In this document: positions 3,548-62,800 of the stretch, piece by piece
Position numbering within the stretch: position 1 is the first letter of the stretch
Layout of the letters: every line of letters begins with the position of its first letter
IMG/VR virus record: IMGVR_UViG_3300045988_137393
Source of the DNA: a virus
Direction: 5' to 3' (one strand)
DNA: 64,000 bases
Program-made: the position numbers and the translations under genes
Notes under the pieces: model-generated
The model's input: only the letters and a program-made list of their open reading frames with translations
The model's database searches: none
What the model was told of the DNA's origin: nothing

Positions 3548-3661
3548 ACTAACGACCACCTCCTTTTATTTCAATATAAAAAAGAAGCCACTTAATACGA
3601 AATGACTTCTCAAACTTTCCAATATTAAATTTTCAATGAAAGCGCAATTCACTTCACTTAG

Positions 3662-3734
3662 CACACCTTCTACGATTTGAACATAGATCTGACGATTTTG
3701 GAGATCGTTGCTTTACCAATTAAGCTAAAGGTGT
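3662..3734 (-). tRNA. tRNA-Trp (CCA)
   Basis: Hand-folded canonical cloverleaf: acceptor ACACCTT/AAGGTGT, D arm GCTT/AAGC, anticodon loop CTCCAAA, T loop TTCAAAT. Confidence 0.85.
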
Positions 3735-3740
3735 ATATAA

Positions 3741-3770
3741 CAAAAGAACCGCCTCCAAAGGAAACGGCTC
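3741..3770 (-). terminator. rho-independent terminator after tail-fibre gene
   Basis: 6-bp hairpin 3746-3751/3765-3770 that is complete (G.U) only on the minus strand, followed on that strand by a T run. Confidence 0.55.
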
Positions 3771-3823
3771 TTTCTTCCAAACAAGCAGAAGAGTAGCAAT
3801 AACCACTCAACTGCTATAATTTT

Positions 3824-5800: not shown

Positions 5801-5803
5801 ATG

Positions 5804-5995
5804 TTACACCTCCCACCACTTCTGATTTTCTTCATCGTAAATGTAAGACTTTTTACTATCCATTTCATAATAGGTTGAAGCATTCCCCACGAAAACATCT
5901 TCAAACTTACCAATAGGTTTTTCATCAGTAGAAAGTCCGTATAATTCAAGCCATACACGATTTGGCTTATCTGCATACTTGTTAATTGTGATCAT
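5804..5995 (-). CDS. small hypothetical protein upstream of tail fibre
   Basis: ORF-track ORF trimmed to the ATG with AAAGGATGG RBS 8 nt upstream; stop overlaps RBS of tail-fibre gene. Confidence 0.6.
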   Translation of the reverse strand: MITINKYADKPNRVWLELYGLSTDEKPIGKFEDVFVGNASTYYEMDSKKSYIYDEENQKWWEV

Positions 5996-6043
5996 TTTAT
6001 ATACCATCCTTTCTTTTTATTTAGTCGATTTTTTATATAACAA

Positions 6044-6065
6044 AACCGACTATAGAAAGTCGGTT
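6044..6065 (-). terminator. stem-loop/terminator downstream of tRNA-Pro
   Basis: Perfect 8-bp hairpin AACCGACT/AGTCGGTT with 6-nt loop, T run on minus strand. Confidence 0.5.
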
Positions 6066-6125
6066 AAAAAGTTTTAATATTTACCAATCAGTCGCCAAAC
6101 TGATCATAACTATATAGGGCGATAA

Positions 6126-6199
6126 TATGGATAGCAGGACTTGAACCTACAACGTCTAGTTCCCAAAACTAGTGGACTACCAAATTGTCCTATATCCAT
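6126..6199 (-). tRNA. tRNA-Pro (UGG), A1:U72
   Basis: Hand-folded cloverleaf: acceptor ATGGATA/TATCCAT, D stem GGAC/GTCC, anticodon loop TTTGGGA, T arm GTAGG-TTCAAGT-CCTGC. Confidence 0.8.
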
Positions 6200-6252
6200 G
6201 TAATAATTTTAAAATTTCTTCACATACTAATCAAAAACCCAAGGAGTAACCA

Positions 6253-6921
6253 ATGAACACATCATATAAAACAGCAATCAAATTCAAAGACTTATATATT
6301 CCTGTAAAAATGGTCAAAGTATCTCATAATAACTCAATAGAACTTAATCAGCTCTGCAAAGATTCAAAGGAAAGAGTACGTTATATCAAATTTTGCCCAT
6401 CATGCAATAAAGAAATTCACAATGAAGATATTGTGAAAGGATATAGATATGCAGAAGATAAGTATGTTATTTTGGAACAATATGATATAGAATCAATTAC
6501 ATCAAACCAAGATAGAACACTTTCAATAAAATATTTCTGTAAATCAAAGGAAATATCAGACATACTCATAGATAAATCATATTATTTAATTCCTGAAATG
6601 AATTCAGAAATCGAATATGAGCTTTTTCGCAAAGCTATGACTACGAATAGAGTAGTAGGTATTGCTGAAATTGTATTGGGTACAAAACAAGAATTAGTTG
6701 CGTTATTTGCCAATAAGAATTGTATTATTGCAACCATTTTATTTTATGAGAATGAGATTAACGAATTGCCGATTATCATGAAACACAAAATAGATAAACA
6801 ACAACTCGAAAATCTCAAACAAGATATTATAGATAATACAAAAGATTTTAATTGGAATTCACATTATGATAAATATCAACTCAAACTAAGAGAATTAATA
6901 TTTGAAAAAATTCCAAAATGA
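6253..6921 (+). CDS. ku: Ku-family DNA end-binding protein
   Basis: 222 aa; N-terminus YKTAIKFKDLYIPVKMVKV..ELNQLCKD..ERVRYIKFCPSCNKEI..EDIVKGYRY..DKYVIL follows the bacterial Ku (YkoV/Mt-Ku) core pattern; AAGGAG RBS. Confidence 0.8.
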   Translation: MNTSYKTAIKFKDLYIPVKMVKVSHNNSIELNQLCKDSKERVRYIKFCPSCNKEIHNEDIVKGYRYAEDKYVILEQYDIESITSNQDRTLSIKYFCKSKEISDILIDKSYYLIPEMNSEIEYELFRKAMTTNRVVGIAEIVLGTKQELVALFANKNCIIATILFYENEINELPIIMKHKIDKQQLENLKQDIIDNTKDFNWNSHYDKYQLKLRELIFEKIPK

Positions 6922-7111
6922 TAACGCCTTTCTCATTCCATCCTCGAATGGCGAGCTTTCATCTAAACTGCATAGGACGTATCCTATTGTTACAACAGTA
7001 CCAGTCCGAAGACCGCAAAGGGCATAGGGCGGTAGTAAGTGTTGAGCTTACACGCCTAAGTTTCGTATACATCCAAAAAATAGGTTTTTACATCAGGTTT
7101 ACCGCACGAAA
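6922..7111 (-). ncRNA. structured ~190-nt RNA leader immediately 5' of tRNA-Glu
   Basis: GC-richer than flanks; on minus strand two UNCG-closed hairpins (GGUC-UUCG-GACU; AUAGGA-UACG-UCCUAU) and a long GGCG..CGCC helix; only a spurious plus-strand ORF. Confidence 0.35.
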
Positions 7112-7182
7112 TAGGGCATAACGGACTCGAACCGATACTCATGGAATGAAAATCCATTGTCTTACCTTTTGACTAATGCCCC
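7112..7182 (-). tRNA. tRNA-Glu (UUC)
   Basis: Cloverleaf: acceptor GGGGCAT/ATGCCCT, anticodon arm ATGGA-TTTTCAT-TCCAT, T loop TTCGAGT (one U.U in T stem). Confidence 0.75.
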
Positions 7183-7216
7183 ATATTTAGGGTGGAAAAG
7201 TACCACCCATTATTTT

Positions 7217-7690
7217 TTACAGAGTATATTCTGTAGTTCCTTCAAAAGTATTATTCAATGCACGAATTTCAGCCAATTTCTCAGTAACAGCTTCCTTAAC
7301 TTTTGTAGCAAATAATACACACTGAGCCTGTGCATACAGTTCCTTCTTATCAAGAACAGTATTTAATACTGTATCAGGGTATTTTGTTACATCTCTTTCA
7401 AAATGAAATGCTAAATCTTCATTGATAAGTTTTCTCTCATTTGTTACATCCGTAATCTCCAATTCAACAATAGTAGAATCGTCTTTTGGATCTGTTGTTA
7501 CTTCTGGAACGCCATTATTAAGCTTGATGTTTCCCTTGAACTGAATTTTGCTATACTCGATATACTTATTGTAATTTGCAAGTAATTCTTTTTCCTGCTC
7601 ACTTGTCAAATCAGCAGTGCCAAGACTTGTAACCGTAATGTCTACACTTGCAATATCATTTTCTACATTAAATTTCTGATCTAATTTCAT
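7217..7690 (-). CDS. hypothetical protein
   Basis: 157-aa ORF, ATGA start/stop overlap with upstream ORF, GAGGGG RBS; no motif recognised. Confidence 0.7.
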   Translation of the reverse strand: MKLDQKFNVENDIASVDITVTSLGTADLTSEQEKELLANYNKYIEYSKIQFKGNIKLNNGVPEVTTDPKDDSTIVELEITDVTNERKLINEDLAFHFERDVTKYPDTVLNTVLDKKELYAQAQCVLFATKVKEAVTEKLAEIRALNNTFEGTTEYTL

Positions 7691-7980
7691 GAATTTGTCC
7701 CCTCGCTTTCGTTTGCAATTATTTGGTTATATGCGTCTTTGAAACTGATTACTAAATCCCTTAAAGTCTCTTTATCAATAGTACAGTCCAAATTGCTCAT
7801 ATCAATATTTGGATTTGATACCGTAAACTCCAATGTATTTCCATTTGGCGCAAATAAAACTTCCACAGATTCATTAAGCAGAAGAGTAATAGAATCAATT
7901 TTATTTCCATTATTCGATGTTACTCGTTTTACTTGCCCAACTTTTAATCTATCATTTTCAATAGATAATCTACTTGCCAT
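7687..7980 (-). CDS. hypothetical protein
   Basis: ORF-track ORF 7687..8088 trimmed to MASRL start (AAAGGAG RBS at 7990s); the longer version runs through tRNA-Met. Confidence 0.7.
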   Translation of the reverse strand: MASRLSIENDRLKVGQVKRVTSNNGNKIDSITLLLNESVEVLFAPNGNTLEFTVSNPNIDMSNLDCTIDKETLRDLVISFKDAYNQIIANESEGTNS

Positions 7981-8031
7981 TATATATACACTCCTTTCTT
8001 TTATTTTTAGTTTTCCTTTTAATCGTTGAGT

Positions 8032-8103
8032 TGCGGAAACAGGACTCGAACCTGCATTCTCTTGGTTATGAGCCAAGTGAGCTTCCATTGCTCGTCATTC
8101 CGC
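8032..8103 (-). tRNA. tRNA-Met/Ile2-type (CAU)
   Basis: Acceptor GCGGAA(T)/(T)TTCCGC, anticodon arm CTTGG-CTCATAA-CCAAG, T arm GCAGG-TTCGAGT-CCTGT; D stem is shifted by one nt relative to canonical numbering. Confidence 0.75.
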
Positions 8104-9026
8104 TATGATAATAGGAGAGGAGCGACCTCCCCATATTATATGTAGATTGGTAAGATCTACTGCCGATTGATTACCAGTCAACCGACAAAGAGAATATTGA
8201 AAATTCTCTGACATGTAATATTATCCAGTTGCAACGCCACATCGGAATTAAACCGAAATCTTCTCTGATATGAGACGCATGTTCAATCATGCTGATGACC
8301 TGGATAATATATTATTCTCCACATATTTTCAGTCTTCGGAGCAAAGACCTCTTGATAAGGTTTAATGACTCTTATCCGTCAATTAAGATTCTCATTAACG
8401 TAGAGAGGCACGAACATCTTCTCATTTCTGAAGGCTGAGATAAACCGATGATCCTAGATGTCGGTAGGAAAGAAATAGGACTTACAATACTACATGAATA
8501 ACAAATGCCAAGTTGATTTTTTCATATTTCAAATGAAACCGTGATGCTGTATCAACCCAATAACGGTTCACTATTTTGTGATTCTTATTGACTAACAGAA
8601 TCACTTTACCTACAACGATTAGAGGTGTTCCACACTTAACGGTGGTGGATTACCATATTTTTTAGTTGTCTACTAAGGCAAGATCTCTCCATAACACCGC
8701 CAATGAGCAGTAAGCAGTGGGAAGTTTTAGACCGTTCCAAAGTCAATAATTTCGCAAACCGACCTTTATATTTATGTCGCATATCGGTCAGCGACAGCTC
8801 ATTTGTAAAAGTCCGTCAACGGATTAACAGACCGCCCTCACTTCTTATGGATGTGAGCAGCTTTGTTATATTTTATTATTCTCTACATTGTCGTCACCTC
8901 TCGGCTCAAATATCACGTTGCTATGCTTTCTTGTTTAAATTAAATTGTTGATGTTGGACGAAAGCTTCATCGGTATCCTCAGTTTCTTCACGAATTATAT
9001 ACATCTGAATGGTTTCGGAAGGATTA
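8104..9026 (-). ncRNA. candidate large structured RNA (a), ~0.9 kb, 5' of tRNA-Met
   Basis: No minus-strand ORF >=60 aa; many perfect helices (8218-8228/8300-8310; 8189-8195/8203-8209; 8578-8585/8597-8604; 8537-8542/8563-8568); helix 8114-8120/8126-8132 is complete only on the minus strand (G.U). Confidence 0.45.
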
Positions 9027-9980
9027 TTAAATTTCAACACTATCTTTTAACTTTCTTACCTTAGAAGTGTCTATTTTAATGTAATATTTTTTTGTGACAT
9101 CCGTTCCAGAATGATTTAACATTGTAGACACATCTTCCAAGCTAACACCTTCATTTTTAAGCAAAGTGGCATAACTATGACGAAAATCATGAGGATGTAA
9201 TGTTGGAACGCCAATCATATTTCCGATCTTTTTACACCAGTCATTTAATGTACCACTTTGAATCGGCTTATTTTCATTGGTGTATGGAGTAATAAATATT
9301 CTTCCGTGGTCATCAATGTTATTATCTTTTCTGTATTGAATTAGTTTCTCAAGATACCCCTTAGTTTCTCTACTAAAACTTAACTCAACAATTTTCCCCT
9401 CTTTTTCAAGCACATTACTACAAATTCTTTCATCAAAATCTACTTGTTCCCATTTTAAACTGCCAATAGCAGTAACTCTTGCCATAGTAGTTAAAGAAAG
9501 AAAAGCATATGCCTGTAACTGAATATCTCCATATTCTTCAAGTTTTTCACGCATTAACTGCACTTGATCTTTTGTAAGATATGTTTGCACAGCGATAGGT
9601 TGACCATTTTTAGGTCTATCAATAAATTCAGTAGGAGATTCTACAATCAATTTTTTCTTACGAAGGAATTTGTAAAATGCAGAAACAGAAGACATAACTC
9701 TTTTTTGTCTTGCAACATTATTCCCTTGTTGTTTCCTCCAATAATAGTATTCTGTGATATCATCCTCTGTTGCTTCCAATACAGATAAATTAAACTGATT
9801 ATCATACATATAAATAAACCATTGTCTTAAATCTATATTGTACGCATTAATAGTATTAACTGATAAATCACGAATAGACATATCTACTTGATACTTTTGA
9901 AACAGTTTTAATGTTTCAGGATTTATATGTTCAAGTTTATCTTCATCATACATTACAATTCTTTTGCTTCGTTCTGCCAT
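9027..9980 (-). CDS. tyrosine recombinase/integrase (XerC/D-like)
   Basis: 317 aa; N-terminal SAM-like core-binding region, C-terminal HPHDFRHSYATLL ... LNHSGTDVTKKYY (H-x-x-R and catalytic Y); start moved to MAERS with GGAAG RBS. Confidence 0.85.
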   Translation of the reverse strand: MAERSKRIVMYDEDKLEHINPETLKLFQKYQVDMSIRDLSVNTINAYNIDLRQWFIYMYDNQFNLSVLEATEDDITEYYYWRKQQGNNVARQKRVMSSVSAFYKFLRKKKLIVESPTEFIDRPKNGQPIAVQTYLTKDQVQLMREKLEEYGDIQLQAYAFLSLTTMARVTAIGSLKWEQVDFDERICSNVLEKEGKIVELSFSRETKGYLEKLIQYRKDNNIDDHGRIFITPYTNENKPIQSGTLNDWCKKIGNMIGVPTLHPHDFRHSYATLLKNEGVSLEDVSTMLNHSGTDVTKKYYIKIDTSKVRKLKDSVEI

Positions 9981-10043
9981 TTTCTCACTTCCTTTCATAA
10001 CAAAAAGAAGCAGTAGTAGTAATAACTAAACTGCTTCATCAAA

Positions 10044-10922
10044 CTATTTTCCATTCTTCATCTGTATATTTTGTATATCTGATACTTTTCTTGGTAATTT
10101 ATATTTATCACACCATTTTCGTATTGTATTGTCTGTAACTTTATACATATCAGCAATATGAGTAAATGGTGTAGATCTTATTAATTTCTTTAAATTATCT
10201 CTTGAAATAATATTATACAATTTTTCTGTATTATATTTTTTGTAACAAATTTCACACATTGTTGATGTTGAATTCATTAAATTTGTTTTGCAATATGGAC
10301 AAAGAATTTTAATCGTTTTATTATTGCGTTTTGTTTTAGCATTCTCTCGTCTATACTTATGTAAGCAAGAAATACATAAGCCACTTTTATTATTTTTACT
10401 AATTTTTGTTCCACATTCTTTACATATCAATTTATTCTTTATTACTCTTTTATAGTTATATACACCAAAATTGTCCGTCATACTATGACAATTAGGACAT
10501 AATATTTGCAAATTTGATAATTCATTATTATCATGATCTCCGTCAATGTGGTGTAATTGCAGTTTAACAGGTTTTCCCATCCATTCAGATATATTACATA
10601 GTTCACATTTATTTTCTTTATATCCAAGTTCAATTAACTTATTTCTTAATTTATGACTTTGTACTTTAGTATTTCTATGTAATTTCGATTCAATATCATA
10701 TTCTGAACATAAAGATTTTTTCGCCATTTGTTGTTTATATACTTTTCTGTTTTCTTCAAATTTAGAAGTATTTAGTTTATATTCATTTATGATTCTTTTT
10801 AACGTATTTGTGCTACTTGATGAATTTATTCCTGCAGCTCTAAGAATTTCTGTGTATGTATTACTTGAATCGAGCAAGCTTTGTAATTGTTCAGGTGAAA
10901 AATTATATAATTTACTCGCCAT
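10044..10922 (-). CDS. HNH homing-type endonuclease with C-terminal HTH
   Basis: LQLHHIDGDHDNNELSNLQILCPNCH HNH motif, several CxxC pairs; start trimmed to MASKL (GGAGG RBS) because the longer ORF overlaps the tRNA-like gene. Confidence 0.85.
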   Translation of the reverse strand: MASKLYNFSPEQLQSLLDSSNTYTEILRAAGINSSSSTNTLKRIINEYKLNTSKFEENRKVYKQQMAKKSLCSEYDIESKLHRNTKVQSHKLRNKLIELGYKENKCELCNISEWMGKPVKLQLHHIDGDHDNNELSNLQILCPNCHSMTDNFGVYNYKRVIKNKLICKECGTKISKNNKSGLCISCLHKYRRENAKTKRNNKTIKILCPYCKTNLMNSTSTMCEICYKKYNTEKLYNIISRDNLKKLIRSTPFTHIADMYKVTDNTIRKWCDKYKLPRKVSDIQNIQMKNGK

Positions 10923-11008
10923 TATATTCCTCCAATCTATTAATTTATTGAAGGTAGAGATAAACTTTATGTTTATAATTCTCTTTATTAATCGAACAGA
11001 TTGACCTA

Positions 11009-11093
11009 GTCCTCCCACTTGGTAACGCTCCAAGCCGATCCGAAGACGACAGATTTACAGTCTGCCCCACATCTTTAGTGGTCTATGAGAGGA
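11009..11093 (-). tRNA. aberrant class-II tRNA-Tyr-like gene (GUA)
   Basis: 7-bp acceptor TCCTCTC/GGGAGGA, anticodon arm GCAGA-CTGTAAA-TCTGT, long variable arm with cUUCGg loop; but T loop AGCGTTA and D loop TAAAGAT lack TPsiC/GG elbow signatures and 3 extra nt precede the D stem. Confidence 0.4.
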
Positions 11094-11134
11094 TACAAAA
11101 AGAGTGTGCAGCATACACCACACACTCTAAATAT

Positions 11135-11809
11135 TTAAAAAATAAAATCAAGCAAATCAAATAATCTTCCAACCGAATTATATTCGTCAAAATCACTTAA
11201 ATCAATCGGCTTACTAGAATAAAATTCACGCTTTTCATATCCATTAACATCACTTTTAACAGAAGTAAATCCGTGAATTTTTCCGTTTTCATCTTTATCA
11301 AATGTAATATTTTTATGAGAATTATCACTTACGTCACTGCAACTGCAATTCTTACAATTACCATCACAATCATCGTCTACATCTTCAGCATCCTCACCAA
11401 TGTTGAATTCATGAATAATGCATCCAGAATCTTTATTGTCCTTGACAAAAGCTGAACTTACATCTCCATGAATAAATACAATGTCTGTCTCATCCATATT
11501 GATATAAGTATCACTTCCCTCATACTTGGTAGCCCGAACACATACATTCATTTCAGAATCAATACTAAGAATAAATGCATCATCATAACCGTCCAAATAA
11601 GGATCATTCAAATCGTTACAAGAAGCAAGTTTAAAATTCGTATTTTTAATAACAGAATTAAGAACATCTTTCATCACATCATACTTAGCCACAACTACAA
11701 TTTCTGAACAATCATCGTCATAATCTCTTGTACAAACATCCAGCTTGTCAAAAGTATCTGCTAAAAATTCAGCAAAATCATTTGTATCTGTAAAACCAAA
11801 TGTTTTCAA
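11135..11809 (-). CDS. hypothetical acidic, Cys-rich protein
   Basis: 224-aa ORF (TTG start, GGTGGTG RBS); DDDCDGNCKNCSCSD cluster; no family recognised. Confidence 0.65.
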   Translation of the reverse strand: MKTFGFTDTNDFAEFLADTFDKLDVCTRDYDDDCSEIVVVAKYDVMKDVLNSVIKNTNFKLASCNDLNDPYLDGYDDAFILSIDSEMNVCVRATKYEGSDTYINMDETDIVFIHGDVSSAFVKDNKDSGCIIHEFNIGEDAEDVDDDCDGNCKNCSCSDVSDNSHKNITFDKDENGKIHGFTSVKSDVNGYEKREFYSSKPIDLSDFDEYNSVGRLFDLLDFIF

Positions 11810-11830
11810 TATATTTTCACCACCTTAGAA

Positions 11831-12115
11831 TTAGAGCTGTTTTGCAGACTTTGACATCTTAAAGCAAATCTCATCATGCTGTGGAGTTACATATTCCTCA
11901 CCCTTGCGATCACCCATCATAATTTTTCCTCTACGCTCTGGAACTGTCTTAACCTTAAACTTTCCAAGTTTTCCAACTGCAACTGATTCTGCGTGATTTG
12001 CTGTTAATGTCTCTGTGATTACATCAGCAAAAGCATCAAGAATAACTGCGATGTCCTTCTGTGAAGCTCCCTCAACTTTATTTACTACTGCCTTTAATAC
12101 CTCGTTCTTTGTCAT
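11831..12115 (-). CDS. HU/IHF-family DNA-binding protein
   Basis: 94 aa from MTKNEV (AAAAGGAGAA RBS); ...DIAVILDAFADVITETL...GKLGKFKVKTVPERRGK... matches HU fold pattern incl. beta-arm R-x-G-x-N/K-P-like region. Confidence 0.8.
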   Translation of the reverse strand: MTKNEVLKAVVNKVEGASQKDIAVILDAFADVITETLTANHAESVAVGKLGKFKVKTVPERRGKIMMGDRKGEEYVTPQHDEICFKMSKSAKQL

Positions 12116-12153
12116 TTTAATTTTCTCCTTTTTTCTCAATTATTTATTTTTTT

Positions 12154-12196
12154 AATACAAAAAGAGGGTAGTGTTTCATTTGAGTACACTCCCTCC
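12154..12196 (-). terminator. rho-independent terminator
   Basis: Hairpin GAGGGTAGTGT / ACACTCCCTC (12164-12174 / 12187-12196) followed on minus strand by TTTTTG. Confidence 0.55.
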
Positions 12197-12321
12197 GATA
12201 CATACAATTGTGACAGCAACATCACAATTTCTATACAATCGGACTAATTAAAAGTAGAAAATTAGCCCAATTTTCATAGTTACTTATGCATAATATAAAA
12301 ACCAAGTCACTCGTACTTGGT

Positions 12322-13317
12322 CTACTTTGTCATGAAATTAGTAATAATTCTTGTCTTGGAATCAATAATGTCACCATTTGAATCCAATGCAAGATACATA
12401 AACCCGTTCTGATTTGGAATTATAAGTTTACCGTTGTTATAATCCAACTTATCCAAATCACACAAACAACCTTGCTCATACATTTTTATTCCACCTTGAG
12501 TAAAACTTCCTACTTTATGGGTATGAGCCATTACGATTCCAGTAAATGTGCGATCTACACGCAAGAAATAATTGACTGCCTTTTCTGTTGTTTTTAACAT
12601 ACCAGATGAATAATTTAATGTGTGACAGAAAATTACATTACCCTCTTTTATCCACCATTTTTTATCATAAACGATTTCAATATTTGAATCTTCAAACACT
12701 TCACGAATAGAAGAGTATTGTGTCTGGGTTTTATTTCTTTCATCATTAACTTTGAATCCATCGTCTACAATCATTTCTAGCGGATCTGTTGGAATGATGC
12801 CAAGTAATTCATTTGATAATCTATCAGAACAGTATCTTTGCATACGGTATTCATGATTTCCCATCACAAACATTACCTTTTTAGGTGTAGTCAGATTGAT
12901 TAAATCAATAATATACTGTCTTCCTAAAACAAGTTCTTCATCAAGATTTATTTTGAATTTTTTAGGAAATGCAGAACATGAAAAACAATCCAATAAATCA
13001 CCATTGACTATTAAAGTGTCTACAATTCCCTTATAACCTGAAAAAATATCAATAGGTAAATTAAACGGAATATGAACATCTGACACACATAAAATTCTTT
13101 CAGATGCACCCTCACAGTTGTGAATATAATTATCATACTCTTCATATCCAACAGCCTGTTTTCTAAGCTGATCTGGTGTAATGTTCAATCCAAGCATATC
13201 TCGAATTTCAATCCAATCCATATCTGTTTCCTTGCGCTTTTTCGCAAGACAACATCTCAATTTCCATTCAAAATCTGTTTCATTTTCTAATCTATGTAAG
13301 TCGATTATAATGTCCAC
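12322..13317 (-). CDS. calcineurin-like metallophosphoesterase
   Basis: 331 aa; motifs SDVHIPF, NGDLLD, GNHEY, FCHT, AHTHK in canonical order. Confidence 0.8.
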   Translation of the reverse strand: MDIIIDLHRLENETDFEWKLRCCLAKKRKETDMDWIEIRDMLGLNITPDQLRKQAVGYEEYDNYIHNCEGASERILCVSDVHIPFNLPIDIFSGYKGIVDTLIVNGDLLDCFSCSAFPKKFKINLDEELVLGRQYIIDLINLTTPKKVMFVMGNHEYRMQRYCSDRLSNELLGIIPTDPLEMIVDDGFKVNDERNKTQTQYSSIREVFEDSNIEIVYDKKWWIKEGNVIFCHTLNYSSGMLKTTEKAVNYFLRVDRTFTGIVMAHTHKVGSFTQGGIKMYEQGCLCDLDKLDYNNGKLIIPNQNGFMYLALDSNGDIIDSKTRIITNFMTK

Positions 13318-13327
13318 CTACTCTCTA

Positions 13328-13555
13328 TTACTCTTCATCAGACGGAACATCCAGCTCCTCATCTGTTTTTAATGCAACAGTAAAATCAATTACCTGATTC
13401 TTAAATGAAGTAAGCAGATCAGCTACCTTTACCTCCTGCTCCATATCATTCTCATCTGTGTATGTAATAGTAGTACAATCCTCTGAGAGTGTACCTGCCT
13501 TTACTGTTAATTTGTCTGTAGTTGTTCTTGTGAACTTTAATTTACTAGCTGCCAT
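13328..13555 (-). CDS. hypothetical protein
   Basis: 75-aa ORF with GGAGG RBS. Confidence 0.65.
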   Translation of the reverse strand: MAASKLKFTRTTTDKLTVKAGTLSEDCTTITYTDENDMEQEVKVADLLTSFKNQVIDFTVALKTDEELDVPSDEE

Positions 13556-13575
13556 TTTTCTTTTCCTCCATAAAA

Positions 13576-13887
13576 TTAAAAATTCCCACCAGAACGCTTT
13601 CTGCCAGGATTAAAATACATTTGTTTCGTTTTATTCTGTTTTACTTTGATATATTCACGAATATTTCTAATATAATTTTCATCATAACTCAAACGAATAT
13701 GTGATTCTAAATAATAACATCCACAACGAGTTGGAATTTTATTTGATAACACATTGTCTATAAGTCTATATGACGGATTAAGATTCGAGAGATGAGTATG
13801 CTTTTCTGTATCTTCTTGTCTACAGATACGATAGCCATTTTCAGTCTTGTCAATATAAAAACCTTTATATTCAATTCGATTTTTCAT
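13576..13887 (-). CDS. hypothetical protein
   Basis: ORF-track ORF, ATG at 13887 chosen over upstream TTG. Confidence 0.6.
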   Translation of the reverse strand: MKNRIEYKGFYIDKTENGYRICRQEDTEKHTHLSNLNPSYRLIDNVLSNKIPTRCGCYYLESHIRLSYDENYIRNIREYIKVKQNKTKQMYFNPGRKRSGGNF

Positions 13888-13896
13888 AGGCAAAAC

Positions 13897-14061
13897 CTAC
13901 TTAACATACTTATCTTCGATGTAACGCTTTCCACCACAAGTCTTGTAATATCCAATATGTTCGCCTCTGCGATCTACATATCCTCGTCTTGTGTTTCTAA
14001 TTATACCTTCGAATAATAATTTTTCAATTTCATTTTTTGAAATGTACTTAATAATTTTCAC
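13897..14061 (-). CDS. possible small protein (54 aa, GTG start)
   Basis: Open frame VKIIKYISKNEIEKLL...GGKRYIEDKYVK between two genes; weak RBS, below ORF-track cutoff. Confidence 0.3.
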   Translation of the reverse strand: MKIIKYISKNEIEKLLFEGIIRNTRRGYVDRRGEHIGYYKTCGGKRYIEDKYVK

Positions 14062-14099
14062 TTCTTTCTTGATTTATTTCCTACAAAGTAGGATAGTAG

Positions 14100-14174
14100 T
14101 TGGAAATGTAGGATTTGAACCCACGACCTCCTGAACCCAAATCAGGCGTTCTAACCAAACTGAACTAATTCCCA
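14100..14174 (-). tRNA. tRNA-Pro (UGG), U1:A72, second copy
   Basis: Acceptor TGGGAAT/ATTTCCA, D arm TAGTTCAGTTTGGTTAGAAC, anticodon arm CCTGA-TTTGGGT-TCAGG, T arm GTGGG-TTCAAAT-CCTAC. Confidence 0.8.
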
Positions 14175-15008
14175 AAATAAAAAATCCCATACCGAAGTAT
14201 GAGATCCTTACTTAATATGAGCTGAGATATTTGACTCAATACACTAACACTTACTGTGGTTGGACACAGTTTATCACACAAGCGATTAGCTTGTAGTTAG
14301 CAACAACACCGATTTTGACATAATCGGCAAACTCTTACCACAAAGTATTATAGATTTTCTTTCTGCACATTCTTCCTTGCGAGATTCATAGGTTGCAGCC
14401 TATTAGAGTTGCACGTACTTGTACTTTCTCATATAACACCTTGCGAGTGCTATATGTCACCATATTACAGGTGAATAAGTTGTTTTTCTCTTTGCGGTCG
14501 CACACACTTTTGCTGTTTTGTAATTTTCTTTTAAATATTATTTACCTAAAATAATTTGATTTCTTTCAAAAGTATGTACTTATTATGGACGATGAGGTGT
14601 ACATTTGATCATCCGTACCTTTTGAGTACAGCCCAATCATCACCATCCTGCTCGGATTGCGATCTCCTTACTTTTTGATTCCATCCCTGTTTTTCAACTT
14701 AAGAGATATTACCAAAATCCTACCAGCGGTTATACTTGCGGTATTCCCACCAATAGTACACAAATCATACCCACATTTCTGTGTTACTACAGTGCCTATT
14801 TCAAGACACCCACCAATCAACCATATTCGCCAACAGTTGTCCTTGAATAGAAGGTTGGGCGTAGATTTTATGTGTTTTCCGTTAAACTGTATTTCACAGT
14901 CGCAGCCTTATAATACGATAAGAACCACTTTATACATGTCGCCATGCTTATTTTTGAGATTTAACATCTCCTGATCCGAAACCAACCAGTCCTACAAAAG
15001 TAGAAAAG
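14175..15008 (-). ncRNA. candidate large structured RNA (b), ~0.83 kb between tRNA-Asn and tRNA-Pro
   Basis: No minus-strand ORF >=60 aa; local hairpins (e.g. CCGATT..AATCGG 14319-14337); CCTTGCGAG (minus: CUC-GCAA-GG, GNRA-type) at 14375 and 14439. Confidence 0.4.
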
Positions 15009-15081
15009 CTCTCCCAGTAAGACTCGAACTTACGACTTTCGCATTAACAGTGCGATGCTCTACCAGCTGAGCTATAAGAGA
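15009..15081 (-). tRNA. tRNA-Asn (GUU)
   Basis: Canonical: acceptor TCTCTTA/TGGGAGA, TAGCTCAGCTGGTAGAGC D arm, anticodon loop CTGTTAA, T loop TTCGAGT. Confidence 0.85.
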
Positions 15082-15756
15082 TTAAGAATTGTCAGTGACC
15101 ATACCACAGGAACTGTAGCACAGCCACCGATCTATAAGAAGAGGAGTACAATATGAATATGTACCAATCTTAGAAATGAACTTTAGAATTGTTCAGAACC
15201 GCCAATGAATTAGTAGCGATGGAATCTCTTAGATTTTATCAGTTCCCCAAATAAGCTGATTATCCGTAGGTTTACCAACCTAACATTAAAATTAGCATTT
15301 ATGGCTGCTTGCACCACATACATTGTCTCTATGGACTTTATTGCCTCAGTATGATACGAGATCTAAATCACTGTTCTGAATTTAATTTGTGTTATATTGT
15401 GTCCGTATAGAACGTTGTTCTAATGTCTTTCGACAATTATATATTCTCTGTTTTATCAGCCAAGAAAAGCTGATTTCATTGTGTTAGCCTTTCGGCACAG
15501 CCCTCAATCAAGAGGGCTTTTATTTTGTAGTAAAACACGTGTTGCATACTTTTATTCCGCATTTGCATATAAGCGGAGAGGATAGTTATGTTGGTATTGT
15601 ACGAAGTACACGCAAATTTACACTGTTATACATTGATAAAGCTTCATTGCCCACTTTCTCCTCATAAGTTCACTTAACTACAATCGTTGAAACCGTTGAT
15701 TTTACTAGCTTTTAGCAACACTAAAGCAATTAAGTCTGTACAAAAACTGTGCATTT
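15082..15756 (-). ncRNA. candidate large structured RNA (c), ~0.67 kb between RNAP-like gene and tRNA-Asn
   Basis: ORF-free; GCC-GAAA-GGC hairpin (minus) next to GCCCTC..GAGGGC stem (15508-15527); shares a ~50-nt module starting CCGCCAATGA (15199) with segment (a) (8697). Confidence 0.4.
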
Positions 15757-22816: not shown

Positions 22817-23118
22817 CCAGCTATAGGGTTTACTGCATTTCCAGTCCATCTAATTAGTTTTAACTACCCCGGCTAGGCAAAAACAATGGATAATAGATAT
22901 ATATTATACATTGTTTTTCTGATCCGATTTTCACAACAAATAGTATTAAAAACTATGTGTAGTAGTAGTTATTGGTTCTATGACATATAGTTTAATATTG
23001 TTATAATCCAATATAATCTTAATATCGTTTCCATTCACCACTTTTATATCAAAATCAATAATTTTTAGGTTCACATTCTCCACTTTATACCATAAAACCT
23101 GTCTAAAAATGGGACAGT

Positions 23119-23226
23119 CCACCACCACACAAAACCAACCTATAATTCTATTGTTAAAATTTCACAATAACACACACCATAACCACACTAAAACTACACA
23201 TATTTCACAAAACTATAAAATCTTAT
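23119..23226. other. G-depleted (C/A/T) block on plus strand
   Basis: Single G (23153) in ~107 nt; CCACCACCACACAAAACCAACC... Confidence 0.85.
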
Positions 23227-23229
23227 GAA

Positions 23230-23906
23230 AAAGACTTGAATATCTCACAAAAAAGGACTATTATACAGTTGTCCGAAGGGATAGGACATAAAACAAGTCC
23301 CATTGTTAGCACATCTGTAAAGAGGACACCGAACCTCACTTGACATCATTAGTTAAGATAGAACCTATCCAAGAATGATGTAAAACCTCACGGCTACTTG
23401 TACAGCCATTCCAAAGCGGATTAAAAAAGCTATCATATATAGCAACGTACAGGGCACTTGATAGCAGTTATTAAGAGGTTGAATTGATACCTTAATGAAA
23501 CAATTCAGTAAAGCCACACTATAGCAGGCACGTGAATAGTAGGAACGATAGAAACCTCATTAGTAGTCAAGTGGCTACTAATTACCATTCCGGCGATGTG
23601 TAACCGGCAAGACAGCAACTCATAAACGTATTAAATAATCTTTACAAGTGTATCACTTGTTTTGTGGTAAAAACATTAAATTACATAACAGGTTTATTAT
23701 ACCACATTCAAAGAGGTTGTTTCAACCTAACAAGATTAAATAGTACAATACCGCTTTATATGTCAAGCGTTAAAAGTATGGCAATATGACATAAGTATAG
23801 CAGGGTACGCAAGCTATACAGTGTAATTGTAAATTATTACAATAAGCACATTCCGCACATTACAATAATAAGCCACCAAGTAAACATGAAAAATGTTGAA
23901 TTATCC
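23230..23906 (+). ncRNA. candidate large structured RNA (d), ~0.68 kb
   Basis: No ORF >=60 aa in any frame 23129-24030; many hairpins (23344-23350/23374-23380; 23644-23650/23654-23660; 23713-23718/23722-23727); repeated module AACCTCA-hairpin-CCATTCC (23384/23406 and 23553/23585). Confidence 0.4.
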
Positions 23907-23994
23907 AGTCGCATTGAGCAGGCTCAGTCTACGCTTTTTTAAGCGGTTGTGAATTAAGCACATTTGAGAAGTGGTTCGATTCCACTTGCGACTT
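23907..23994 (+). ncRNA. tRNA-like element 1 (acceptor + canonical T arm, no 7-nt anticodon loop)
   Basis: Acceptor AGTCGCA/TGCGACT, T arm AGTGG-TTCGATT-CCACT, long extra arm TGTG..CACA; the anticodon-position hairpin CGCTT-TTTT-AAGCG has a 4-nt loop; D arm truncated. Confidence 0.5.
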
Positions 23995-24048
23995 TACCAA
24001 AAAAATAATTATATTGCACTCATGCGTTAAATGAGAGAAGGAGACATT

Positions 24049-24846
24049 ATGTTAAAATCTGAAAAATTCTACTCAAAAACTAATTCTTTAAAGGACACAA
24101 CTTTCGACTTTGCAGGACACGTTAGAACTTTAGTTCGTAACACTGAATTATCACGGATGCAGGATAAAAAATCATTCAAGGATGGTAAAAAAGCATTAGA
24201 GGATGCACACGCTGATATTGACGTTATGACTTGTGACGCTAGTATTATCAATCAGACTTTAGGTAACGATGCAGGTCAATTCATCAAAGACCGTGAAGAG
24301 ATTATTGCTTTAAAAGATGAAATTGCTACACTTTTACCGATTGACAACGTGACCGCACTTTGTCCAACTGACCGTGTACATATTACTTTGATGGCTCATG
24401 CTATCTATAAAAATGTACAGCTGGATGCTGATATTTTCGACACTGAAAAAGGCGGTGTTGATATTTCTAAGGCAGTACAGGTTTACTATAACAAAGGTTC
24501 TATGAAAGACTTAAAAGATGCTTTACGTTCTGTATTTAATAAATTAATCGGTTCTGAAGGTGATCACTTCTACGGCATTAAAATAAAAAAGTCCGATTTT
24601 ACAGATAAGGATCTGCGTAACTTCCTTGCAACTTTTGGCGGTTCTGCCAAACGTGAACAATCTAAGTCTAAGAAGGATGGAGTAGAAATTGTAAAATTTT
24701 CCGACTTTAACTATACAGACAAGTCAGGCAATAAAAAAGTACAGATTGCAGCTTTTACAACTCTTTGTGCAGTTGTTCTTGATAATGCGTCAAAACATGA
24801 GGTTATTAAGCCGGAAACTACAGAAGAGAAAACCGAAACAAAATAG
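24049..24846 (+). CDS. hypothetical protein (265 aa), first rightward gene
   Basis: Strong RBS GAAGGAGA 7 nt before ATG 24049; bracketed by two tRNA-like elements; no motif recognised. Confidence 0.75.
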   Translation: MLKSEKFYSKTNSLKDTTFDFAGHVRTLVRNTELSRMQDKKSFKDGKKALEDAHADIDVMTCDASIINQTLGNDAGQFIKDREEIIALKDEIATLLPIDNVTALCPTDRVHITLMAHAIYKNVQLDADIFDTEKGGVDISKAVQVYYNKGSMKDLKDALRSVFNKLIGSEGDHFYGIKIKKSDFTDKDLRNFLATFGGSAKREQSKSKKDGVEIVKFSDFNYTDKSGNKKVQIAAFTTLCAVVLDNASKHEVIKPETTEEKTETK

Positions 24847-24898
24847 GATGATACTGCATAAGTAGTAGGTGTGCAGGGTTCGACTCCCTGCTCATCCT
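24846..24898 (+). ncRNA. tRNA-like minihelix element 2 starting at the last base of the stop codon
   Basis: Acceptor GGATGA/TCATCC stacked on T arm GCAGGG-TTCGACT-CCCTGC, single internal hairpin TACT-GCATA-AGTA; no D or anticodon arm. Confidence 0.5.
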
Positions 24899-24957
24899 TT
24901 AACTTTTAAAGTGAAAAATTCAGGCTATAAGTATGCCCATTTTTAAGGAGGTTAATC

Positions 24958-25185
24958 ATGTTAAAGTTTAAAAAATCAGAAATTCATAAACTTGCAAATC
25001 AGCTCACTTGTAACTCTGAACTTTTCGGGGATGAGGTTGCGTCTGTTATTGCACAACTTACATCACTGTCAAACTCTGCAAATGAGTTTGGTTGTACAAT
25101 GGAAGGTAAAATCTTTGATTGTTGGGGTTCTTCCGTTTCGGTAATTGCTTTACCTGATAAGGCAAAACATAGTTGGGAATTTTAG
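24958..25185 (+). CDS. hypothetical protein
   Basis: 75-aa ORF, AAGGAGG RBS. Confidence 0.7.
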   Translation: MLKFKKSEIHKLANQLTCNSELFGDEVASVIAQLTSLSNSANEFGCTMEGKIFDCWGSSVSVIALPDKAKHSWEF

Positions 25186-25195
25186 GAGGTGTACT

Positions 25196-25675
25196 ATGCC
25201 AAAAATCAAACACGAACCAAAATTTTACATTCGACTTTGTAAGGGAACTATCATGCAATTTCCAGATAATTTCACAATCTATCCAGGCTCAATCTATGGA
25301 CGTTTTACGGATAAGCAAGGTAAACGTATATTTTGGGTATGCAATGACTACAGGCTCACAAATGGCAAACTACCTGTAAATATTTTCAATGGAACACGTT
25401 GGACTTTGTGGCTAGTAAATGCAGATCATCCATGCTATAAGTGGGTAAAATCTGTCTGCGAAAAGTTGGGTTATATTCCTAAAATCCAAAGGGAAAATTT
25501 ATCCTTTGACGATTGCCAAAGTATGATGAAAAGCTATGCTTTACATAAAAAAGGAACAGGTTCACGGATCAACACGTATCAGATCAATAATCCTTTGCGT
25601 TGGAATGAAGTAACAGAAACTGCACACTGGTATGGTCACGGAAACGCAAGTGTTGTTGCATCAAATATTAGATAA
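25196..25675 (+). CDS. hypothetical protein
   Basis: Start trimmed to MPKIKHE (TAGGAGGTG RBS). Confidence 0.7.
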   Translation: MPKIKHEPKFYIRLCKGTIMQFPDNFTIYPGSIYGRFTDKQGKRIFWVCNDYRLTNGKLPVNIFNGTRWTLWLVNADHPCYKWVKSVCEKLGYIPKIQRENLSFDDCQSMMKSYALHKKGTGSRINTYQINNPLRWNEVTETAHWYGHGNASVVASNIR

Positions 25676-25692
25676 TAGTATGCAGTACCGAA

Positions 25693-25721
25693 AGGCAGAA
25701 CGCACTAAAAGTCTGCCTTTT
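25693..25721 (+). terminator. rho-independent terminator
   Basis: AGGCAGA/TCTGCCT hairpin followed by TTTT. Confidence 0.7.
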
Positions 25722-25795
25722 CATAGTGCATATTAGCACTAGAATGGAGGTTCGATAGTATGGTAAAATTATAAAGGCAAAATAGGAGGATTGCC

Positions 25796-26059
25796 ATGCT
25801 AAAAATTAATGAATGGTCTGTAAACCGTAGAATAGAGTCTTTGCGTCAGATGGATAAAATGCTGTCCGAAATGAACGTAGGCTCACGCTATACTATATGG
25901 CAGGAATATGGCGGAGGACTAAAGGCAAACGCAGATGATACTCATGCAAATTGGAAACGTATTGCAGAAGATGACGAACTGTACCAAAATGCTATTTTCT
26001 GTTATATGTGTTGCACGTTGGAAAAGTATACTTTACAAAATTTCAATGTAAGGGAGTAG
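25796..26059 (+). CDS. hypothetical protein
   Basis: 87-aa ORF, TAGGAGGA RBS. Confidence 0.7.
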   Translation: MLKINEWSVNRRIESLRQMDKMLSEMNVGSRYTIWQEYGGGLKANADDTHANWKRIAEDDELYQNAIFCYMCCTLEKYTLQNFNVRE

Positions 26060-50364: not shown

Positions 50365-50437
50365 AGGGCATTCGCCAAGCGGAGAAGGCATTGCACTTTG
50401 ATTGCAAAATTCATCAGTTCGAATCTGATATGCCCTG
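50365..50437 (+). tRNA. tRNA-Gln (UUG)
   Basis: Acceptor AGGGCAT/ATGCCCT, D arm TCGCCAAGCGGAGAAGGC, anticodon arm TTGCA-CTTTGAT-TGCAA, T arm ATCAG-TTCGAAT-CTGAT. Confidence 0.85.
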
Positions 50438-50596
50438 CTTTGTGACATTCCACCCGGTATGTTACAGAACGCAAGAGATTTCCTTGTAAGAGCAAAATGT
50501 GTAGTTGCTAAAGTTCTACCATAGTTTAATCCACTAACGGATTACAAGCTGATACTATAGAACTTCCTGATAAACTTGCGATAGTGTCAGCTACTT
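50438..50596 (+). ncRNA. structured spacer between tRNA-Gln and tRNA-Met
   Basis: 7-bp closing helix GTAGTTG/CAGCTAC, inner helices GTTCTA..TAGAAC and TAATCC-ACTAAC-GGATTA; no T-loop signature. Confidence 0.3.
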
Positions 50597-50670: not shown

Positions 50671-50695
50671 TTGCTAAATCAAACAAAGAGAGGAG

Positions 50696-61390: not shown

Positions 61391-62800
61391 ATGAAAAGAT
61401 TGAAAATTGAAATTCCATCTGGTGCAAATGAAATTATCCATAGTCTACAAAACAATGGATATGAAGCTTTCTTAGTTGGAGGGTGCGTAAGAGATAGTAT
61501 TCTTGGCAGAATAATTCACGATTATGACATTACAACTTCTGCCACACCAGATGAAATGATGGAAGTATTTAAGGATAAAAGAATTATTGAAACTGGATTA
61601 CAACATGGAACTATTACCATTATAATTGACGGTGAAGGATATGAATGTACCACTTACAGAATTGACGGTAATTACTCAGATAGTCGTAGACCTGATAGCA
61701 TAACATTTACACGAAATCTTAAAGAAGATTTAAAGCGTAGAGATTTTACAATCAATGCGATGGCATACAATGATGAAGTTGGACTTGTAGATCCGTTTAA
61801 TGGCATGGAAGATATTGAGCATTATAAAATCAGATGTGTTGGTAGAGCAGAGGATAGATTTTCAGAAGATGCTTTAAGGATTTTACGTGCTATTCGGTTT
61901 GCTTCACAACTGGGATTTGTCCTTGAACCTGATACAGATTGGAATATCTCTAAAATGTATAAGAATTTGGAGAATATATCTATTGAAAGGATCAATAGTG
62001 AGTTCTGTAAAATTGCTGCATCGAGTGATTTCTGTGTACAAATGGTCTTATATCACGAAGTATTCTCATTGTTCATTCCTGAAATTAAAGATATGTTTGG
62101 CTTTCAACAGAATAATCCATATCACATGTATGATGTATGGAATCATACCGTACATGCAGTACAAGCATATTCTTGTGATTGTGAAGAAGACTTAAATCCA
62201 ATAGATTTAATTACGTCATTAGCGGTGTTCTTTCATGACATAGGAAAGCCACACTGTTATCAAGACGGTGAGGATGGCATTAGACATTTTAAAGGGCATG
62301 GAAAAGTCAGTGCTGATATGACTGATACAATTATGAAAAGACTTCGTTTTGATAATGATACAAGAGAAAAAGTAGTGCAGCTTGTTTATTATCATGATGC
62401 AACTTTTGAAGTGGGTGAAAAGTATATCAAGAGATGGCTCAATAAGATTGGAGAAGAACAATTTAGAAGATTACTGAATGTTCGTAGAGCTGATATTAAA
62501 GCGCAGGCTTATACAGAGCAAGAGAGTAGGCTTCAGAAAATTGACAATATCGAATATATCTTAGAGGAAGTTTTACAGAAAGACGAATGTTTCTCACTGA
62601 AAGATTTGGCTGTTAATGGCAATGATTTGATTGAGATTGGATATAAGCCAGGAAAAGAAATAGGGAATACACTGAATTGTCTTTTACAGTTAGTAATTGA
62701 AGGTGTATATCTAAACGAGAAAAGTGAGTTACTTAAATATGTTGAGACAACAAAAGAATGGATGAAGTTAGGAGAGAATTATAATGGTAAGATTATTTAG
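61391..62800 (+). CDS. cca: CCA-adding tRNA nucleotidyltransferase with HD domain
   Basis: LVGGCVRDSILGRIIHDYDITT (class II NTase G[SG]..RD..L...D.D), RDFTINAMA, ALRILRAIRFASQLGF, HD motif FFHDIGKP. Confidence 0.85.
   Translation: MKRLKIEIPSGANEIIHSLQNNGYEAFLVGGCVRDSILGRIIHDYDITTSATPDEMMEVFKDKRIIETGLQHGTITIIIDGEGYECTTYRIDGNYSDSRRPDSITFTRNLKEDLKRRDFTINAMAYNDEVGLVDPFNGMEDIEHYKIRCVGRAEDRFSEDALRILRAIRFASQLGFVLEPDTDWNISKMYKNLENISIERINSEFCKIAASSDFCVQMVLYHEVFSLFIPEIKDMFGFQQNNPYHMYDVWNHTVHAVQAYSCDCEEDLNPIDLITSLAVFFHDIGKPHCYQDGEDGIRHFKGHGKVSADMTDTIMKRLRFDNDTREKVVQLVYYHDATFEVGEKYIKRWLNKIGEEQFRRLLNVRRADIKAQAYTEQESRLQKIDNIEYILEEVLQKDECFSLKDLAVNGNDLIEIGYKPGKEIGNTLNCLLQLVIEGVYLNEKSELLKYVETTKEWMKLGENYNGKII

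Follow-up and report, generated by a model that had tools for sequence, protein, structure and literature searches.

We describe here two tRNA-like elements, E1 (23907..23994) and E2 (24846..24898), in the viral DNA recorded in IMG/VR as IMGVR_UViG_3300045988_137393. The whole stretch of 64,000 nt is referred to as the window, all coordinates refer to it unless a compared locus is named, and the features of the early region discussed here are on its plus strand. The reading which we favour, and to which we give a moderate degree of confidence on the basis of sequence comparison, is that E1 and E2 are tRNA-mimicking, interchangeable RNA-cleavage cassettes that would define the ends of early mRNAs in a family of large human-gut phages. 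The comparison of relatives indicates that they are functional, selected RNA structures and not decaying tRNA genes. The two elements lie on either side of the first rightward open reading frame (ORF; 24049..24846, 265 amino acids), which starts with the ATG at 24049 and ends with the TAG at 24844-24846, and the G at 24846 doubles as the last base of this stop codon and as base 1 of E2. The next ORF (24958..25185, 75 amino acids) is the gene that E2 may serve. Kin of the 265-amino-acid ORF were compared on 31 loci from IMG/VR and 36 from metagenomes (about 70, with ORF identities of 26-100%), which come from the human gut wherever a source is named; L-numbers are the labels of the compared loci and contigs.

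Structure and conservation of E1 and E2

The minimum free energy (MFE) fold of E1 (-27.6 kcal/mol, z = -2.8) is the cloverleaf that the initial annotation of this DNA had read from the letters, and sequence and fold agree on its geometry: a 7-bp acceptor stem (AGTCGCA/TGCGACT), a truncated D arm, a 4-nt loop at the anticodon position, an extra arm and a T arm. The D-like hairpin (TGAG-CAGG-CTCA) has a D loop of 4 nt, and its stem is separated by 4-5 nt from that of the anticodon-position hairpin (CGCTT-TTTT-AAGCG), which carries a U-rich tetraloop; the extra arm reads TGTG-AATTAAG-CACA, and the T arm (AGTGG-TTCGATT-CCACT, 23970-23986) is canonical and is followed by the discriminator T. ARAGORN reports E1 as 'tRNA-??? 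(tt)' with a two-base anticodon, and the Rfam tRNA model RF00005 (threshold 29 bits) gave no match in 23500-25300, neither at the gathering score nor at E<=10, in line with the earlier description of a non-decoding element that should score as pseudo- or tRNA-like. No transfer-messenger RNA (tmRNA) was called by ARAGORN; only the T arm fits tmRNA models, and the acceptor pair 3:70 is U-A and not the G3:U70 that marks alanine identity.

E1 varies among relatives at the position of the anticodon. In the commonest form its loop can be drawn with 4, 6 or 8 nt and never with 7, and the run of U at this position counts 5, 6 or 7 residues among close relatives. In L096 the loop has become AUUU, on a stem of A and U only, and in the L021 type UUUUACU; L102, L105 and L107 lack the whole arm. 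Across these variants ARAGORN flips between 'tRNA-???' and tRNA-Lys(ttt), the latter being called for L077, L087, L099 and L106. Because the length of the anticodon-position loop varies, E1 is clearly not selected for decoding. Derivation from a tRNA-Lys(UUU)-like gene is possible.

Covariation was tested on 20 distinct E1 sequences. Paired cells made up 92.4% of the total and 17 of the 24 pairs had changed on both sides, a result as good as which was given by none of 500 shuffles, and pairing fell to 25-41% once the partners were slid. After realignment with a covariance model, 19 of the 24 pairs covary. The acceptor stem reads AGTCGCA, GGTCATA, GGTCACA, AGCCGTG, ACCCGTA, TCCCATG, AGCCGTT or AGTCGGT depending on the clade, and its 3' strand always matches. 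The covariance model finds one copy of E1 per phage. A further helix of 3 bp is possible between the E1 linkers GUCU and GAGA; it shows one apparent compensatory change (L027), the sequences being too few to say more.

E2 is a 53-nt acceptor/T-arm minihelix in which GGATGA/TCATCC and GCAGGG-TTCGACT-CCCTGC form a 12-bp stack (6+6 bp), with one inner hairpin (TACTG-CATAAG-TAGTA) and neither D nor anticodon arm. Here too the MFE fold (-22.5 kcal/mol, z = -3.7) and the sequence agree with what had been described, including the first G taken from the TAG. The E2 sequence occurs on 23 IMG/VR contigs, once on each and only at this locus. E2 is less diverse than E1 (96.5% of cells paired, 5 of 17 pairs changed on both sides), and in distant relatives its stems are wholly re-coded, as GGATAT/GTATCC in L096, AGGGCGG/CCGTCCT in L100, GGATAGT/ATTATCC in L106 and GGTATAG/CTATACC in L027. 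The alternative that the elements are simply decayed tRNA genes, for which synteny in related phages had been named as the check, fails, since both elements are kept with compensatory changes and the minihelix is found in almost all relatives.

The overlap of E2 with the stop codon, to which the initial annotation had drawn attention, is a feature of part of the family. It is retained in three clades with the common junction AARTAG/GAT (the window, the L013/14 type and L096), and elsewhere a gap of 14 nt (L027), 11 nt (L106) or about 30 nt (L100) separates stop codon and element; the overlap is therefore not essential. The ORF of L019 combines a body of the L021 type with the last nine codons of the window type and E2 (locus 1988-2893). 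This shows that a recombination took place within the gene, close to its 3' end, and that E2 travels as a module together with the last nine codons.

Within the window such structures are rare. A scan of both strands for minihelices with a coaxial stack of about 12 bp and a 7-nt consensus T loop recovered E1 (7+5 bp, with GGTTCGATTCC) and E2 (6+6 bp, with GGTTCGACTCC), and these two are the only matches besides eight true tRNAs with the canonical GGTTCGAYTCC T loop. Relaxed minihelix rules added a few weak AT-rich matches. One of these, at 15673-15734 on the minus strand between a tRNA-Asn and an 869-amino-acid ORF, has a 7-bp terminal stem and a T-loop-like TTTCAAC and is probably due to chance. 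For E1 and E2 themselves a chance origin is excluded by their conservation and covariation in relatives.

The eight genuine tRNA genes, at 3661-15081 on the minus strand and 50365-50671 on the plus strand, are all without an encoded CCA and all have T at the first trailer position. RNase Z favours CCA-less precursors with U right after the discriminator, and the tRNA genes of the phage, to judge from their ends, fit a maturation of the RNase Z type. The trailers of E1 (T/TACC) and E2 (T/TTAA) likewise lack an encoded CCA and place U right after the discriminator. Because all eight tRNA genes also lack CCA and have T at position +1, E1 and E2 bear the same end-processing signals as the true tRNAs of the phage.

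Reduced forms, leader modules and ribozymes at equivalent sites

E1 is found 5' of the ORF in nearly all related loci, once per phage. Every relative read in which a form of about 250-310 amino acids heads the early region has either E1 or a reduced version of it, down to an ORF identity of 26%, with L112 as the only exception. The full cloverleaf is present in L096, L099, L100 and L106, the L019 type has a 67-nt element without the extra arm, and L105, L107 and L111 have a minihelix of 47-48 nt with one hairpin. L102 has a bare minihelix of 42 nt (GCACGCT-ATAGGTTTTG-TCGGG-TTCGAAT-CCCGA-AGCGTGC), and L109, at 26% protein identity, has a 78-nt variant with a different interior. The part retained in almost all relatives is the acceptor/T stack of about 12 bp with its T loop, followed by U, UUAMC and an A-run. 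It is established that RNase P, RNase Z and the CCA-adding enzyme require no larger substrate than an acceptor/T minihelix (PMC11143913).

What follows the tRNA-like element is also conserved in its layout, which can be described as a leader module composed of the element, a U/A-rich trailer (U, UUAMC), an A-rich spacer, a small hairpin, a strong Shine-Dalgarno sequence (SD) and the ATG, with the start codon 42-107 nt 3' of the element across the folded loci. In the window the distance to the ATG is 55 nt from E1 and 60 nt from E2. Behind E1 come a U/A-rich trailer and spacer (TACCAAAAAAATAATTATATTGCA, 23995..24018), of which UUAMC and the A-run recur after E2 and after most tRNA-like elements of the relatives, then the leader hairpin LH (CTCAT-GCGTTAA-ATGAG, 24019..24035), and directly 3' of it the SD AGAAGGAG (24036-24043) that precedes the ATG of the ORF. 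Behind E2 the leader of the next gene (24899..24957) contains a U/A-rich trailer, the motif or hairpin M (GGC-TATAAGTAT-GCC, 24920-24938) and the SD AAGGAGG (24945-24951). The stem of LH covaries (GCTATG/CATAGC in L004, CCCAC/GTGGG in L027, CCTAT/ATAGG in L096 and L100) and its loop GCGTYAA is kept; M is kept in most relatives and its stem covaries as well (AAGC/GCTT in L013). In L100 and L110 the leader behind E2 nearly duplicates that behind E1, even to ATGTTAAAA, and a copy of LH is also found 5' of the second gene in L100, L110 and L109 (the first copy in L100 lies at about 1467-1483). Because the same type of leader follows each element at such a distance from a start codon, E1 and E2 are probably the heads of two successive leader modules and not the brackets of one ORF, so the frame in which they had first been described is probably the wrong one. 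E2 may belong to the next gene.

The small hairpins of the leaders have features of their own. LH could bind a translational regulator or serve as a 5' stabiliser. Motif M, located between E2 and the next gene, has the consensus CAGGCTATAAGTMTGCC and a short stem (RGGC/GCCY) that covaries. M-like copies are found in L021 at 3796-3812, where one lies inside the hairpin before the hammerhead described below, and at 3889-3905, in L027 at 3828-3842, inside its version of E2, and also just 5' of the tRNA-like minihelices of L107 and L111; the motif resembles the inner part of E1 (23917-23946). As a general promoter M was rejected, with one good copy in the window and a 'TATAAG' that varies at key -10 positions.

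In some relatives ribozymes take the place of the tRNA-like elements. At the E2 site of L021-L024 and L089-L093 there is a strong hairpin (H) together with a type III hammerhead (GUC/UUACGG-UGAAAGU-CCGUAA-CUGAUGA-GCAGAAGC-GAAAC-GC), which in L021 (3821-3872) aligns end to end with RF00008, with all core bases (GUC / CUGAUGA / GAAA) present and the stems in type III order. The same class of hammerhead was found by a core scan on six unrelated viral contigs (L054, L056, L057, L059, L062 and L063), five of which have it at most about 30 nt 5' of an SD and ATG. In a comparison of seven versions its stems I and III proved to covary, with 97.6% of cells paired and double-sided changes in 7 of 12 pairs. 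This class is also marked by a fixed stem II (GC-AGAA-GC) and a loop I of the form TGNRAGT, and L059 has two copies 600 nt apart which flank a gene. L112 (44% ORF identity) has no tRNA-like element and shows a twister-P1 candidate at 1064-1146, just 5' of the ORF leader, in which AAGCCC, GGU and UAA are present and P1 is weak. A pistol ribozyme lies further along the operon in L107 (3216-3268); it scores 43.8 bits, above the Rfam gathering score, and is cut by the end of the locus. The finding of ribozymes at equivalent sites is what would be expected if the job of the element is RNA cleavage. In L109 the next small gene is followed, at 2755-2835, by a tRNA that is positive in Rfam and for which ARAGORN makes no call; its anticodon-position loop counts 12 nt.

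Proposed mode of cleavage and alternative explanations

The favoured mechanism would run as follows. The early transcript would fold into the acceptor/T-arm minihelix, host RNase P would cut at the 5' edges of the elements (23906/23907 and 24845/24846) and RNase Z after their discriminators (23994/23995 and 24898/24899), as it would for the CCA-less tRNAs of the phage. Each downstream gene would in this way receive an mRNA with a defined 5' end, made up of the A-rich stretch, the conserved small hairpin and the strong SD of its leader. This end would be uncoupled from the upstream sequence, which would make the module the natural equivalent of insulators built synthetically from ribozymes or tRNAs. 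In the relatives a hammerhead, and probably a twister too, would do the job at the same spots without host enzymes. For E2 the mechanism may take two forms. If RNase P acts at 24845/24846 the ORF mRNA would end in UA, leaving it either non-stop or with a stop codon to be completed; if RNase Z alone matters, E2 would remain on the mRNA as a protective 3' structure, like hairpin H in the hammerhead clade. What the sequences show are the structures with their conservation and covariation, the minihelix as the part that nearly all relatives retain, the ribozyme substitutions and the repeated leader layout; the cleavages, the co-transcription of the elements with the genes and the benefit to the phage are what we infer. 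A wider version, which we offer tentatively and would not be surprised to see fall, holds that tRNA mimics dependent on host RNase P and RNase Z and up to three ribozyme classes (hammerhead, twister and pistol) are interchangeable cassettes heading the leaders of early genes, and that the UA end, in the clades with the overlap, either serves to switch off the first early protein by a deliberate non-stop message or becomes a full stop codon through added A, as in mitochondria.

Several observations weigh against this mechanism. In the clades with the overlap, an RNase P cut at E2 would strip the upstream ORF of its stop codon, which seems costly, and since L025/26 and L099 have no cleavage element 3' of the ORF, the 3' element is dispensable. 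The system is not a genome-wide punctuation; further copies of E1 or E2 and ribozymes were sought in the window and none were found. In L107 and L111 a -10-like box lies 5-6 nt 5' of the tRNA-like element, so that the element may start the transcript there and RNase P would be unneeded, and the window has, between E1 and the ORF, a weak promoter-like match (TTGCGA-18-TATATT, 23986-24015) with a -35 that lacks conservation. The T loop of the L019-type E1 has 6 nt. The hammerhead of L021 scores 23.6 bits (E = 0.0039 in a 161-nt search), below the Rfam gathering score of 48.5 bits, its stem II having 2 bp and the loop AGAA, and the twister-P1 candidate of L112, with 36.9 bits (E = 1e-4 in a 30-kb search, 7e-7 locally), is below its gathering score of 67.2 bits. 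Finally, no isolate genome carrying the phage was found in a genome collection holding one genome for each of 185,579 species.

A different function would be served if the elements were stable, trans-acting tRNA-like small RNAs, released by RNase P and RNase Z and tagged with CCA, whose position next to early genes would merely give very early and strong expression. Possible roles would be those of decoys or sponges for host factors directed at tRNA, such as defence toxins that attack acceptor ends or anticodon loops of the tRNA-Lys(UUU) type, or proteins that modify or bind tRNAs. The loops of E1 (CAGG, the U-rich tetraloop and AAUUAAG) and its linkers (GUCUAC and UUUGAGA) are conserved beyond what a cleavage signal needs, several variants are read as tRNA-Lys(ttt) by ARAGORN, E1 comes first among the elements of the rightward early region, the -10-like box of L107 and L111 lies directly 5' of the element, and the phage codes for an enzyme of the CCA-adding type. 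We nevertheless think this explanation unlikely, because the reduced forms (L102, L105 and L107) are without the E1-specific loops and yet keep the position and the downstream leader, and because the ribozymes at the same sites in relatives would give no tRNA-like product. An antisense role of the C4/CI type is unlikely as well: the longest complement of E1 or E2 in 23995-25700 has 9 nt, which was matched by 85 of 200 shuffles for E1 and by 31 of 200 for E2, so that complementarity to the downstream mRNA is within chance. An antisense RNA like P1 C4 or P4 CI was therefore rejected. Less probable again, in our estimate, is that the elements are uncut terminal folds which protect the RNA, E1 as a cap-like 5' structure and E2 as a barrier to exonucleases at the 3' end, either a fold or a weak terminator; the shape of a tRNA would then be incidental or would serve to recruit a protein. 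Both elements do fold stably, E2 is followed by TTTAACTTTT, plain hairpins replace E2 after the ORF in L025/26, L097 and L099, and hairpin H of the hammerhead clade precedes the cleavage site and would remain as the 3' end of the ORF mRNA. A plain stabiliser, however, needs neither the canonical GGTTCGAWTCC T loop nor the exact 12-bp stack, and both are kept amid the turnover of the stems; minihelices of this kind are established as being cut by RNase P and RNase Z anywhere. The terminator scan called neither E1 nor E2, and E1 is not terminal, the presumed transcript starting about 35 nt 5' of it.

Two further explanations are largely refuted. That E1 is an unusual decoding tRNA (a tRNA-Lys(UUU), a frameshift or a suppressor tRNA) and E2 the remnant of a decayed one could appeal to the ARAGORN calls of tRNA-Lys(ttt) in four loci and to the lack of any tRNA-Lys gene found by ARAGORN in the window, where AAA is frequent in an AT-rich genome. 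It is made highly improbable by the commonest form having no 7-nt loop, by the variable run of U, the 4-nt D loop and the want of an Rfam tRNA match at E<=10, by short forms of E1 that have no arm at the anticodon position, and by an E2 which is conserved with compensatory changes and so not decaying. The least probable of all is that the elements are copies of the ends of host tRNA genes used as phage attachment (attP) sites, or are other signals at the level of DNA. It is common for a phage attP site to reproduce the 3' portion of a tRNA gene. The collection with one genome for each of the 185,579 species, however searched, held no exact match to the 3' half of E1 or of E2 and no prophage copy of the ORF; no integrase was seen near the locus, and the acceptor stem is complete on both strands and covaries, a signature of selection on RNA.

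Genomic setting, known systems and implications

A candidate early promoter is suggested by the -10-like hexamer TACAAT at 23861..23866, about 40 nt 5' of E1; at the aligned site the L014 type has TATAAT and L096 has TACAAT, and a promoter consensus scan picked up the neighbouring TACAAT at 23838-23843. Between this hexamer and E1, 3' of a conserved AAGTA, there is an upstream leader hairpin (AACAT-GAAAA-ATGTT, 23883..23897) which has counterparts in the same place in relatives, with the stem re-coded as ACCTA/TAGGT in L021, CCATT/AATGG in L106, CCC/GGG in L105 and TTGC/GCAA in L099. This hairpin could be a 5' structure of the RNA or an operator.

The 265-amino-acid product has no match in Pfam, PHROG or the PDB sequences. 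Its protein family comprises 111 clusters, all without annotation, and further members were traced to contigs. The AlphaFold2 (AF2) model of the protein (predicted local distance difference test score 90.8) shows a helical bundle with a beta hairpin sheet; a Foldseek search with this model gave no significant match in the PDB and one weak match in BFVD, to an uncharacterised Siphoviridae protein, and to judge from the model the product possibly represents a new fold. Profile library searches gave no family match for the 75-amino-acid product of the next ORF, and blastn of 23000-26000 against the phage collection gave no match. On L108 (1-2784) a homologue of 427 amino acids (37% identity across the whole query) lies directly 3' of a gene for BrxL (BREX Lon-like) and 5' of one for a leucine-rich repeat protein. 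This neighbourhood hints at a connection of the ORF family with defence or anti-defence.

The enzyme on which the idea of CCA-tagged mRNAs had been built is present, as far as domains can tell: the gene at 61391..62800 (plus strand) codes for a CCA-adding-type nucleotidyltransferase (Cca) with a PolyA_pol head (7.7e-38), HD and tRNA_NucTran2_2 domains, and it is taken here as context for E1 and E2. Such nucleotidyltransferases are common in large phages, and since the eight true tRNA genes without CCA account for this one, it lends no specific support to CCA-tagging of mRNA. The strong SDs, together with a Clostridioides phage among the nearest matches of Cca, hint at a Firmicutes host.

The nearest published precedent that we found is that of active hammerheads flanking ardA and other genes in polycistronic RNAs of prophages (Perreault et al. 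2011, PMC3088659). As here, a single gene of the early or anti-defence type (e.g., ardA) is flanked within a phage operon by structured cleavage elements, which are intergenic, and processing of the transcript is thought to be their role. The difference is that E1 and E2, as tRNA mimics, would need host RNase P and RNase Z and would not cleave themselves, so their products would have 5'-P and 3'-OH ends, whereas ribozyme products have 5'-OH and 2',3'-cyclic phosphate ends. Phage RNAs matured by RNase P are also known, namely the C4 antisense RNA of P1 and P7, the M3 RNA of phi80 and the gene 32 mRNA of T4 (PMC11143913); they resemble the present case in being non-tRNA transcripts, of early or immunity operons, which host RNase P cuts by way of tRNA-like features. 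C4 differs from E1 and E2 as an antisense regulator with defined downstream targets, the complementarity of E1 and E2 being within chance. C4 sits 5' of genes on the same transcript. C4, M3 and gene 32 RNA are not known to contain a canonical T arm or a complete acceptor/T minihelix like those of E1 and E2. In the literature that was searched, leaders of phage mRNAs with tRNA-like elements are not described, and the precedents found are those cited here; the initial statement that no such arrangement is described for phage mRNAs has to be narrowed by the prophage hammerheads and the RNase P-matured RNAs.

The likeness to mitochondrial tRNA punctuation, which had been drawn at the outset, lies in tRNA shapes that abut coding regions and would be cut by RNase P and RNase Z, and in E2 starting within a stop codon, comparable to the mitochondrial mRNAs whose last bases directly before a tRNA are U or UA. 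In mitochondria, however, the punctuation is genome-wide and made of real decoding tRNAs, whereas here two non-decoding mimics stand at one locus, and completion of the stop codon by addition of A is purely hypothetical for E2, whose overlap is missing in several relatives. Among eukaryotic systems, the mascRNA-type tRNA-like 3' ends of MALAT1 and MEN-beta and the 3' tRNA-like structures (TLSs) of plant viruses are substrates of RNase P, RNase Z or the CCA enzyme that define or protect an RNA end. These belong to eukaryotic nuclear long non-coding RNAs (lncRNAs) or to the termini of RNA viruses, the TLSs being aminoacylated and pseudoknotted; E1 and E2, in contrast, have acceptor stems of the ordinary kind and lie inside an operon of bacterial type. 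Among engineered parts, RiboJ places a ribozyme and a hairpin before the ribosome binding site (RBS), and polycistronic tRNA-guide RNA (gRNA) arrays cut a polycistronic RNA by tRNA processing. The order of cleavage element, short hairpin and RBS, and the use of tRNA processing on a polycistronic RNA, are shared with the locus described here, the difference being that those insulators are engineered and the present arrangement is natural and evolutionarily conserved.

For annotation the elements are a pitfall, as ARAGORN labels some of them tRNA-Lys or 'tRNA-???'. The role of many phage and bacterial hammerhead, twister and pistol ribozymes is still largely open. Homologous genes placed behind a tRNA mimic in one phage and behind a ribozyme in another, with the rest of the leader alike, amount to a natural swap experiment, and this points to a shared function, that of cutting just 5' of the leader. 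The wider version given above, should it hold, would give phage-borne small ribozymes a concrete role in the definition of mRNA ends and the insulation of operons, and E1 and E2 would then be the first tRNA-type punctuation of mRNAs in a bacteriophage. If the favoured reading is right, part of the phage ribozyme puzzle would be explained, the elements would offer compact natural insulator parts for hosts of the Gram-positive type, and these phages would co-opt for their early mRNAs the host tRNA-maturation machinery, a use known from organelles and a few eukaryotic lncRNAs and not from phage mRNAs.

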